From positions 28,024,001 to 28,088,000 of the forward strand of contig OX597835.1 of NCBI GenBank assembly GCA_951406725.2: a stretch of DNA of 64,000 nucleotides, read 5' to 3'. The stretch's first letter is position 1, and each line of letters begins with the position of its first letter. This document shows positions 53,186 to 64,000 of the stretch, piece after piece. The stretch comes from Octopus vulgaris (lineage: Eukaryota). The position numbers were made by a program, and so were the translations under genes. The notes under the pieces are model-generated. The model was not told the DNA's origin. It ran no database searches and saw only the letters and a program-made list of their open reading frames with translations.

Positions 53186-53258
53186 CATGTGACCGCATGT
53201 GTACCGTTGGCGATTTTTTTCCTCTGTCTTCCCTTCCTTGGATCTTTCCTTTTCCTAT

Positions 53259-53293
53259 GTTTCTGACGAAGAGCTCTGCTCGAAACGTTAAAT
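53259..53293 (+). ncRNA. Minimal type I hammerhead ribozyme in element H2 (53183-53385)
   Basis: GTTT-CTGACGA-A-GAGC-TCT-GCTC-GAAAC-GTT^AAAT. Intact core; loopless palindromic stem III (AACGTT) typical of Penelope-associated minimal hammerheads. Confidence 0.8.
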
Positions 53294-53621
53294 CCTCCTT
53301 CTTTCTTTCCTTTCCTGAGCGTCCAAGAACACTATATTTGTTCCACATCCTCGCATTGTTGTGTTTTCATGTTTGGATTAACTTTATATATATATATATA
53401 TATACATATATATACATACATACATATATATATATATACATATATATACATATATATACATACATATATATATATATATACACACACATATATTCTTACA
53501 TACACACACATATATACATACATGCACACACACTCACACACACACACACACATACACACACACACATACACACGCACACATATCGTCAGTAGATCATATA
53601 TCCGAAAACAAACCACACTGT

Positions 53622-55224: not shown

Positions 55225-55259
<35 letters not shown>

Positions 55260-55269
<10 letters not shown>

Positions 55270-55540
55270 TAATATCAAAAAGTATTAAAAAGTTTAATAT
55301 AAGATAATAAGTAAAAAGTTTAAAAATTTATTAATATAAATTTTAAAAATATTTTTTAAAATATAAAAATTTATGAATATGAATTAATAATTTTAAATTT
55401 AAATAATTTAAATTTTTTAATTTTATATTTTTTATATATTTTGTATATTATATTAAATATTTTTATTTTAATGTTTTAGTTTATGTTTTTCACTGTTTCA
55501 TTTGCATAATAGTGGTTTTATCTCTAATTTAATTCATATA
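55260..55540. repeat. Extremely AT-rich element, direct duplicate of 57350-57630
   Basis: AATATCAAAAAGTATTAAAAAGTTT..TAATAGTGGTTTTAT.TCTAATTTAATT in both copies; the tail also matches 62005-62052. Confidence 0.85.
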
Positions 55541-55554
55541 TATATATATATATA

Positions 55555-55705
55555 TTACAATTACTCAATAGTCAAGATAAAACTCTGAGTTTCAGATGCC
55601 GAAGTGGAAATCCACAAAAACCATCTCTTCGGTTATCTGGTGTTGTGGATTTTCACTTCAGCATCTGAAACTCAGAGTTTTATCTTGACTATTGAGTAAT
55701 TGTAA
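55555..55705. repeat. Fold-back (63-bp arms) containing a hammerhead-like motif at 55575-55638 (-)
   Basis: Arms 55555-55617 and 55643-55705. Minus strand reads AGATAA-CCGAAGA-GATG..CATC-T-GAAAC-TCAGA-GTT^TTATCT (U4C core variant, 6-bp stem I). Confidence 0.75.
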
Positions 55706-57315: not shown

Positions 57316-57621
57316 TGTGTATTCATATAGATATATATATATAAATATATATATAATATATAATATCAAAAAGTATTAAAAAGTTTAATATAAGATAATA
57401 AGTAAAAAGTTTAAAAATTTTAAAATTTAATTTAAAAAATATTTTTAGAAATATAAAAATTTATAAATATGAATTAATAATTTTAAATTTAAATAATTTA
57501 AATTTTTAAATTTTATATTTTTTATATATTTTGTATATTATATTAATTATGTTTATTTTTATGTTTTGGTTTATGTTTTTCACTGTTTGATTTGCCTAAT
57601 AGTGGTTTTATGTCTAATTTA

Positions 57622-57679
<58 letters not shown>

Positions 57680-61495: not shown

Positions 61496-61691
61496 AGGGA
61501 GACATAGTTATCATCATCATTGTCATTATCGTCATTGTTGCCGTTATGTCATCATTGCATCATATACATATATATATATATAATATTATTTATAATATAT
61601 TTAAATTTTTTCTATGTGATTTAATATAGATAATATCTTTCACTATCAATTGAATTACTTAATAGAGGTTATTTCTCTTAATTATATACAT

Positions 61692-61720
<29 letters not shown>

Positions 61721-61725
<5 letters not shown>

Positions 61726-62060
61726 TATATTAAATTAGAGATAAAACCACTATTAGGCAAATCATACAATGAAAAACTTAAGCCAATACGTAAGATTAAT
61801 TAATTTATATTATTTTAAATATATCAAAATTATTAAAAAAGATAATGAGTATAACACTACGATCGTTTCATGGCTGTCCAATTCGTAATTAATTACGAAT
61901 TGGACAGCCATGAAACGATCGTAGTGTTATACTCATTATCTTTTTTAATAATTTTGATATATTTAAAATAATATAAATTAATTAATCTTATGTATTGGCT
62001 TAAGTTTTTCATTGTATGATTTTCCTAATAGTGGTTTTATCTCTAATTTAATATAATATA
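61721..62060. repeat. 340-bp spacerless near-perfect palindrome containing two hammerhead 3' halves
   Basis: Centre 61890/61891 (CGTAATT|AATTACG), 170-bp arms, two mismatches seen. Each arm reads ..GCCAT-GAAAC-GATC-GTA^GTGTT outward from the centre. Confidence 0.95.
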
Positions 62061-62144
62061 ATATTTTACTATAAAATTAGATTTAATCCTAAATCTGATT
62101 TTTCCCTGTAAGTTTGGTTTTATTCACTTCACTAATATTTTATT

Positions 62145-62176
<32 letters not shown>

Positions 62177-63046
62177 CATCATCGTCATCATCATTATTTA
62201 ATGCCCATTGTCTATGCTGGCATATGTTGGATGGTTTCACCAGGGCTGTTAAGCTGAGGGGCTGCACCAGACTCTAGTCTGATTTGGCATGGTTTCTACT
62301 GCTGGATGCCCTTCCTAATGCCGTATATACATGTGTGTCTGTGTGTGTGTATAGCAAGAGAAAGAGAGAGAAAGTCAGGACACATGAGATAACATATTTA
62401 GTCCTACATGCAACAAAAAAAAAGAAAGGATGAATCGGTCATGAGTGGAGAGTCTCTAATTGATCGCCTGCACGATCAGGCTTAGGCTAAACAGCTACAA
62501 CATGTCATATATAACACAGCTGCTACTGCTGCTGCTACTGCTGCTGCTGCTGCTCCTGTTGCTGTTACTGTTGCTGTGGTTGTTGTCAAGTGTCAGCTGT
62601 TGCACTCTCTCTCTGTCGTGAAAAATCTATTGAACTTCTGATTCATTGATTGAATCACAATAACACTAAATATTTTTCCATATCAAATTATCTGAGATTT
62701 TATGGTGAAATTGTTTGATTTTTCATTCAGTTTGTGTTTTGTTTTTGTTTGGTAGTTTTTGTTTTTTTTTACTTTTGGTTTCTTTTTTTTTTTTGTAGTT
62801 TTTTTTTTTTTTTTAGTTGTTGTTGTTTTTCACTTCTGGTGTTTTGCTGTCAGATATTTTTCTGTGTGTTTAAAAAAAACATTTCAAAAATGTGTGTCCA
62901 TCGTGCATTACTTTGGAGATGCCTCGTAAGCTGTTTTACCCAGATTTGTTACGTGTTTCAGCAATCATCGTCATTGTTATCATTGTCGTCATTTTTAACA
63001 TCTACTTTTCCATACTTGTGTGGGTGGTTGAAGCAGAATTTCTATG

Positions 63047-64000
63047 GCTGGATGCCCTTCCTGTCACCGACCCTCATATGTTCCCAGCAAGGTAACATAC
63101 TTTTCTGCTCTAGGTACAAGACCCAAAATTTTTGGAAAGTGGGGCCAATTGATTAAAGTGACCCCGGTATGCAACTGGCAAGCTGGATGCTCTTCATGTC
63201 ACCCACCCTCATGTGCTCCTAGCAAGGTAATATACTTTTGTAGTCAAGGCACAAAGCCCAAAACTTTTGGAAAATGGGGCCAGTTGATTAGAGCGACCCC
63301 AATACACAACTTGCAGGCTGGATGCCCTTCATGTCACCAACCCTCATGTGTTCCCAGCAAGGTAATATACTTTTCTGCTCTAGGCACAAGGCCCAAAATT
63401 TTTGGGAAGTGGGGCCAGTTGATTAGAGCGACCCCAATACACAACTTGCAGGCTGGATGCCCTTCATGTCACCAACCCTCATGTGTTCGCAGCAAGGTAA
63501 TATACTTTTCTGCTCTAGGCACAAGGCCCAAAATTTTGGGGAAGTGGGGCCAATTGATTAGAGTGACCCTGGTAGCGCAACTGGCAGGCTGGATGCCCTT
63601 CATGTCACCAACCCTCATGTGTTCGCAGCAAGATAATATACTTTTCTGTTCTAGGCACAAGACCCGAAAGTTTTGGAAAGTGAGGCCAGTTGATTAGAGC
63701 GACCCCGGCACACAACTGGCAGGTCAGATGCCCTTCATGTCACCAACCCTCATGTGTTCCCAGCAAGGTAATATACTTTTCTGCTCTAGGCACAAGGCCC
63801 AGAATTTTTGGGAAGTGGGGCCAGTTGATTAGAACGAACCCAGTACGCAGCTGGCAGGCTGGATGCCCTTCATGTCACCGACCTTCATGTGTTCCCAGCA
63901 AGGTAATATACTTTTCTGCTCTAGGCACAAGGCCCAGAATTTTTGGGAAGTGGGGCCAGTTGATTAGAACGAACCCAGTACGCAGCTGGCAGGCTGGATG
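63047..64000. repeat. ~135-bp tandem satellite, at least 7 units, running off the window end
   Basis: GCTGGATGC recurs at 63047, 63182, 63317, 63452, 63588 and onward. The unit fuses a family D-like segment with the SINE B tail. Confidence 0.95.

Follow-up and report, generated by a model that had tools for sequence, protein, structure and literature searches.

The palindrome at 61721-62060 of the 64,000-nucleotide stretch of Octopus vulgaris DNA analysed here (hereafter the window) is probably a dead, 5'-truncated pLTR insertion in a TA microsatellite, composed of two cDNAs copied from one RNA, one on each target strand, and joined head to head. The original prediction of a 5'-truncated insertion of Penelope-like (PLE) type was right, the source being a Hydra-clade Penelope-like retroelement. 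The fold-back synthesis invoked to explain the symmetry was not supported, and this conclusion was reached mostly from the other members of the family.

Inverted-repeat analysis of the locus found two arms of 170 nt each (61721-61890 and 61891-62060) that abut with a 0-nt spacer and are 99% complementary. They differ at exactly two pairs, 61790 G/61991 T and 61758 C/62023 T, so that arm length, lack of a spacer and number of mismatches were all as had been claimed; the symmetry is gone from pair 171 outward. The motif GAAACGATCGTA lies at 61912-61923 on the forward strand and at 61869-61858 on the reverse strand. Its distance to the axis, predicted as about 20 nt, was 21 nt in both arms. The CTGANGA core, whose half had been described as missing, was indeed absent in and near the palindrome on both strands. 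Also in agreement with the first reading, the right arm carries on as element sequence for about 86 nt to 62146, where (TA)n begins, and the whole insertion covers approximately 61721-62146. In a genome-wide search, the centre of the palindrome was found at one place.

The left target flank (61692-61723) is a (CA)n and then (TA)n microsatellite, and its boundary with the element is blurred over about 4 nt. The left arm (61721-61890, reverse strand) is an inverted pLTR piece that runs from loop II of a hammerhead (position -33) to a short end site S (about +137 to +141) and bears a private change, A>G at 61790; its mirror GAAAC-GATC-GTA (61858-61869, reverse strand) is the 3' half of a hammerhead core with a 2-bp stem III and a palindromic loop. 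The arm junction (61884-61897) lies, without spacer, in loop II (A/T) of the parent hammerhead. The right arm (61891-62060, forward strand) is a direct pLTR piece from loop II onward with a private G>T at 62023, and holds the 3' half of a type I hammerhead (61904-61926, forward strand), an identification that the original prediction had right. This half comprises the 3' strand of stem II (61904-61911), GAAA (61912-61915), stem III with the GATC loop (61915-61922), a predicted cleavage position after A61923 and the 3' strand of stem I (61924-61926), as assigned from pair counts over 83 distinct family motifs and with the architecture described in PMC4209133. The left arm stops at site S (62041-62060, forward strand), which is also where the 3' pLTR ends in the full-length element L064 and where 42 of the 52 solo copies end. 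Only the right arm continues through a tail (62058-62146, forward strand) to a long end site T; this tail measures 84 nt in relatives and here includes a short local duplication in addition. The right target flank (62144-62170) is again a (TA)n microsatellite.

Other repeats were observed in the window. The palindrome adjoins a pLTR piece (61575-61690, 85% identical to L057:2821-2924) that ends at S and comes from a more diverged Hydra-type family; the microsatellite at the 3' end of this piece is where the young element inserted. Two older S-ended pLTR pieces, about 80% identical to L064, lie at 55250-55560 and 57340-57645; their near-identical upstream sequences, about 2.09 kb apart, mark a local duplication. 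A 135-bp tandem repeat of at least seven copies occupies 63035-64000 and continues past the window end, and a compact hammerhead-like motif (CTGACGA ... GAAAC) at 53255-53302 on the forward strand belongs to a different repeat that is also present in L179. A scan of the 64-kb window against Rfam returned 0 matches.

The right arm belongs to a high-copy repeat, with 2451 candidates; among the 40 that were scored, full-length matches were 94-97% identical, self-match aside. A 31-mer taken from the hammerhead had 223 exact matches in the 2.8-Gb genome, for 0 with the control. Upstream of the part present in the right arm, un-inverted copies carry an extended stem II, CUGAAGA and then AATCAC or AACCAC. 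The core was intact in 81 of 83 distinct motifs, a proportion that applies to a search demanding a near-intact core and leaving broken ones uncounted; the upstream CUGANGA anticipated in un-inverted copies was thus present. The expected stem I partner was present as well, its sequence (a 3-bp CAC/GTG pairing) being near to, although not identical with, the AACAC that had been foreseen. The parent motif combines CUGANGA and GAAA cores, an NUH site and three helices, as type I hammerheads do: helix I is 3 bp long, the cleavage site is GUA, helix II forms 7 of 8 pairs and shows a single compensatory change, in an older subfamily, and helix III has 2 bp closed by the palindromic GAUC loop. The predicted fold of the monomer was marginal and was not the minimum-energy structure in the seven variants folded, and PLE hammerheads are described in PMC4209133 as weak as monomers. 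The parent motif fits the PLE hammerheads of that paper, with a short helix I, a long helix II with a mismatch and a tiny palindromic helix III. The end of an intron beside helix I is also found in Penelope of Drosophila virilis. The octopus family differs by its first helix II pair, predicted as A-U or U-U instead of the conserved G-C, and by a window copy reduced to the 3' half of the core. Counted from the cleavage base, the axis corresponds to position -33 of un-inverted copies, in which the CUGAAGA core starts 23 nt further upstream. The axis had been placed inside stem II; it does lie in the extended stem II of the parent, but in its A/T terminal loop (loop II) and not in the helix. Non-LTR retrozymes, defined in a preprint (bioRxiv 10.64898/2026.07.22.740005) as non-coding units in tandem that each bear a complete hammerhead, were considered as a class and rejected: no such tandem units occur at the palindrome locus, and the repeat is a pLTR, part of a coding element.

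This coding element was found by walking upstream from pLTR copies. The order of parts in L064 is (TA)n, a spliced 5' pLTR, a broken open reading frame (ORF), a long 3' UTR, a GT-AG intron, an unspliced 3' pLTR and (TA)n, and direct pLTRs surround the ORF in L064, L168, L170, L171 and L173. Their occurrence in direct and inverted orientation, with an optional 84-nt tail, is the arrangement of EN+ Penelope-like elements. L174 joins a pLTR of the window type to an open frame of 745 aa, and a sister subfamily has intact frames of 828-841 aa, with an 838-aa frame at G000:C7:50721705-50724221; the 838-aa ORF of L167 is 79% identical to the L174 frame. The predicted model of the L167 ORF, in which YRDD is present, had a pLDDT of 82 and a pTM of 0.79, and its best eight fold matches in the PDB were telomerase RTs, with E values of 1e-9 to 7e-8; as judged from this model, the parent ORF encodes a telomerase-like RT. 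A C-terminal GIY-YIG endonuclease is indicated by an [IV]YIG motif (residue 730) that follows a VVYKC strand, by PF01541 (GIY-YIG) in 3 of 40 aligned homologs (best E 0.00037) and by Atlas neighbours at 0.95-0.97, in which GIY-YIG occurs in 16-50% of members. PF00078 was carried by 2 of 44 homologs. Direct Pfam searches with six ORF pieces or ORFs returned no relevant family, neither RT nor GIY-YIG; a homolog search with L056 among longer proteins gave none, and PDB sequence searches yielded 0 matches and then six weak, irrelevant ones.

According to Craig et al. 2021 (PMC8557442), the Hydra clade of C-terminal EN+ PLEs, which includes Hydra-1_Obim of Octopus bimaculoides, is recognised by RWK, DKT, a CxCx5C linker, and CxxC and CxH around conserved E and N residues. 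L167 has KWK at 44, DKT at 129, CTCRDKSNC at 689, CYLCSNE at 795 and N..CRH at 815, and L174 has all of them except KWK, being 5'-truncated. The family thus appears to belong to the Hydra clade by all five motifs tested and by its (TA)n preference, a placement by motifs alone. It further resembles the clade, as portrayed there, by its C-terminal GIY-YIG-type endonuclease, a pLTR hammerhead, the (TA)n target and inverted, 5'-truncated copies with a tail at one end only. Its hammerhead sequence differs from the Hydra-1_oBim row in the supplement of that paper, which points to a different family, so that the palindrome would represent a new family of a clade already known in octopus. Other differences concern size, with octopus elements of 5-6.5 kb, long 3' UTRs and an Asn-rich insert compared with the <3 kb given for the Hydra clade, and a tail of 84 nt compared with 30-40 bp described for PLEs. 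The Asn-rich insert (L167 residues 493-600) is a disordered stretch of the ORF, as described for rotifer Penelopes, and the 3' UTRs of 2-3.5 kb in L064:6910-8920 and L168 are longer than in published Hydra elements. Comparison of L082, L141 and L027 with L064:7115-7135 pointed to another splice donor further upstream in the 3' UTR, apparently used with the same acceptor before the hammerhead; this donor would take out about 1.8 kb.

The ends of the family were analysed on a sample picked irrespective of ends, in which the first 100 of the 223 hammerhead 31-mer matches were merged into 89 loci. The arms end at either of two sites separated by 84 nt, S at about +137 to +141 and T at +221, and of 129 such ends 121 are in (TA)n. 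Head-to-head pairs were present in 37 of the 89 loci: 30 were S+T, one S+S and one T+T, and five had one end at neither site. An excess of 30 S+T among 32 classifiable pairs has a p value of 2.5e-7 against an independent 50:50 choice. Both exceptions look doubtful, owing to an odd end in L154 and to a much older second piece in L078; one clear T+T pair, L013, came from an end-biased first set and not from the 89-locus sample. Conversely, two separate insertions lying close together may underlie one or two of the S+T pairs, as in L133, where the gap is 379 nt and the arms are 10% apart. The remaining 52 loci, without an inverted arm within about 1.3 kb, ended at S (42), at T (9) or elsewhere (1), and include two duplicated locus pairs. 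Among long insertions, S+T was found in all four with both outer ends fetched (L169/170, L172, L173 and L176, up to about 14 kb), and in the other 7 of the 12 long loci fetched no inverted arm could be resolved for the main element. The largest case (G000:C3:63968400-63982650, L169 and L170) is a head-to-head arrangement of about 14 kb with an ORF in each arm, an S end on one side and a T end on the other. The window palindrome keeps the same rule, its left arm ending at S and its right arm at T. As a repeat, the palindrome is far beyond chance, yet such a layout is not rare in the family.

S and T ends are A/T-only sequence and could also come from annealing to (TA)n during repair. A conserved RNA structure around them was sought in seven sequences, and none of the 39 predicted pairs had a two-sided change; single-sequence folds hinted at a predicted pairing with the ORF start, again without covariation. 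A similar short motif occurs about 11 nt before both S and T, and in the diverged L057 family a 5-bp hairpin is predicted at both. Three nearer copies fold at T alone, and other A/T-rich windows reach an equal similarity score; sixteen diverged RT loci offered too few intact 5' ends to extend the comparison. The S/T stretch (+57 to +221) is about 86% identical between L167-L173 and L178 on one side and L016 on the other, although the hammerheads have diverged beyond alignment. This conservation across diverged subfamilies suggests that a binding signal of the enzyme may reside in the S/T stretch.

Comparison of paired arms bears on how they were made. They agree at 150 of 153 subfamily-diagnostic sites, for 64% in random pairs, which indicates that both came from one source; same-subfamily arms would fit one RNA or two RNAs of one source alike. 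In 12 of the 30 S+T pairs neither arm is contained in the other, the S arm reaching further 5' (by >50 nt in 11 of the 12) and the T arm having the tail, and in three pairs (L077, L118 and L126) the arms share no sequence at all. Non-nested arms of this kind cannot be copies of each other and cannot be yielded by copy-back of one cDNA. A single T-primed cDNA that stalls in the hammerhead, snaps back, copies itself as far as S and joins the other target end via the A/T-rich S would nevertheless produce a palindrome like that of the window, where the arms are nested and of one subfamily; S does resemble (TA)n, and some family junctions sit on small natural hairpins, such as L075 with its 7-nt loop. 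We consider this scenario unlikely, the case against it coming from the family, as the arms of the window alone are nested. Besides being unable to give the 12 non-nested pairs or the three without shared sequence, it has to face the 42 direct solo copies that also end at S, which indicate that S behaves as a start site. The more specific fold-back of the original prediction, primed in the ribozyme hairpin, is not supported: nothing of the stem II 5' strand was kept at the junction, and a hairpin loop has no room in spacers of 0-2 nt. Junctions are spread along the repeat. Of 44, only 2 have both arm ends within stem II/loop II and 8 have one end there, while 33 have an arm reaching the 5' region of the RNA (-70 or beyond). 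Paired ends and non-nested arms in the family point instead to two separately primed cDNAs.

The template strand is indicated by an intron. The parent has a GT-AG insert of about 900 nt overlapping the pLTR/5' UTR, and among 106 hammerhead-spanning arms, scored on genomic sequence alone, it was spliced in 55 and kept in 20, 31 being uninformative. Splicing at GT-AG on the sense strand implies that sense RNA was the template of those 55 arms. Self-priming on an antisense RNA template has been published for head-to-head PLE palindromes (PMC3846280), and accounts generally for palindromic junctions and for retained introns such as those of the 20 arms; since it predicts nested arms and the spliced arms need a sense template, we regard it as highly improbable here.

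The centre of the palindrome may be read in two ways. If the parent had a rare loop variant, present in L038 and in contigs of two sequencing runs, it would correspond to two cDNAs ending at one base with a 2-nt TA overlap; in the other reading one untemplated base was added, the commonest parent loops mismatching by one extra base. A search for a parent loop already containing the full centre gave 0 matches. Tight centres are not rare in the family: spacers of 0-2 nt were found in 5 of 48 junctions, after six further zero rows were dropped as A/T-repeat artefacts and with 11 lacking a symmetric core. Blast overlaps of 1-20 nt occurred in 20 of 44 junctions, a count made without a chance control. 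Three independent palindromes (L020, L022 and L147) have a 1-nt centre in the same near-palindromic 7-mer close to the 5' end of the RNA. An ordinary, spaced inverted pair could have come first and lost its centre symmetrically by hairpin or cruciform processing, in line with the spaced layout of most family pairs, which reach the 5' end region of the RNA, and with a centre unlike the commonest parent loops unless one base is added. Palindrome processing usually leaves asymmetric centres, and no positive sign of such a loss was seen. The other pairs with spacers of 1-2 nt sit at self-complementary points of the template, so that tight centres can form at insertion; a later loss is accordingly very doubtful.

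An assembly artefact from a fold-back chimeric long read was also considered. No read or contig listed for 24 sequencing runs bridged the centre, a result that weighs neither way, as the insertion may be absent from other individuals and palindromes interrupt contigs. A chimera would have mirrored into the flank, whereas the symmetry stops at pair 171, at the S end of the family, with different host flanks on the two sides, which makes an artefact unlikely. Moreover, each arm has a private substitution, being one change away from its nearest relatives, and the S+T layout recurs at 30 other loci; we give this explanation hardly any credence.

The age and the RNA properties of the palindrome differed from what had been proposed. 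Arm divergence is 2/155, compared with a mean of 2.2% over 35 pairs, and was lower in 14 of the other 34 measurable pairs, so the palindrome is not unusually young. Gene conversion had been offered as the other explanation of the near-identity, but the arms have one private change each and none in common. By these substitutions the palindrome seems to be of the same age as its subfamily, and they give no hint of conversion. Its transcript, with a predicted fold of -243 kcal/mol, had been expected to offer the substrate half of a hammerhead for cleavage in trans; in the folded palindromic RNA, the bases of GAAAC-GAUC-GUA-GUG are all paired with a probability >0.997. It would be a poor substrate because this half is locked in the predicted hairpin, and trans-cleavage by the palindrome transcript is unlikely. 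The stub likely has no function.

The observations established here are the identity of the family, its parental RT-endonuclease ORF, sites S and T 84 nt apart with one of each per pair, arms of one and the same subfamily, their lack of nesting in 12 of 30 pairs and spliced sense-strand templates. They are consistent with the following series of events, in which the endonuclease would nick both (TA)n strands, and one reverse transcription would start at T and one at S. The T-started RT would read again the stretch copied from S, either by displacing the first cDNA or on a second RNA of the same source, and the 3' ends of the cDNAs would be joined through a few paired bases or by end joining. 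At the palindrome locus, both cDNAs would have stopped at -33, in loop II of the hammerhead, leaving a spacer of zero and a CUGAAGA half that was never copied; that synthesis stopped in loop II is put down to chance. As a more general rule, we are inclined to think that PLEs insert by obligatory two-site priming, in which one enzyme pair would use one RNA to make one cDNA per fixed site and strand, the trailing copy displacing the leading one.

Related behavior has been reported in vitro for Poseidon_Ac (PAc) from the green anole, which cuts and extends both strands and has two internal starts bounding the tail (Frangieh et al. 2024, PMC11167929). The octopus family would share with PAc these two internal RT starts, the use of both strands, A/T-rich targets and a hammerhead dispensable for insertion. 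PAc belongs to a different clade, and its starts are inside the ORF and not homologous to the target, whereas the octopus starts are A/T-only and upstream of the ORF; the PAc paper is silent on inverted arms and on one site per strand. In twin priming of L1 (Ostertag and Kazazian 2001, as summarised in the review PMC9148063), both target strands prime on one RNA and an inversion results. The three family loci with abutting, non-overlapping arms look the same. In L1, the second primer lies at variable internal places and the first at the poly(A), whereas both sites are fixed here, and most pairs of the octopus family overlap, meaning that the same stretch was copied twice, unlike in L1. An inverted truncated copy with a one-sided tail has already been published (legend of Fig. 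2 in PMC8557442, and PMC3846280). The rule of one S and one T with non-nested arms was not found in the non-subscription literature searched. The locus is real but ordinary and the layout of its palindrome known; its value lies in a family-level test of mechanism.

In itself, the locus is minor, a dead stub with half a ribozyme, but its family provides a genomic test of how Penelope-like elements build inverted ends. The pairing of one short with one long end, together with the non-nested and spliced arms, argues against fold-back and against the published antisense self-priming, and connects the two start sites known in vitro with the inverted structure. If obligatory two-site priming is true, one rule would cover the inverted pLTR, the one-sided tail and the solo stubs, and the spacerless palindrome would be its limiting case, in which both copies stopped at the same base. 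Intact sister ORFs of 838-841 aa are present in the genome and make this mechanism testable.
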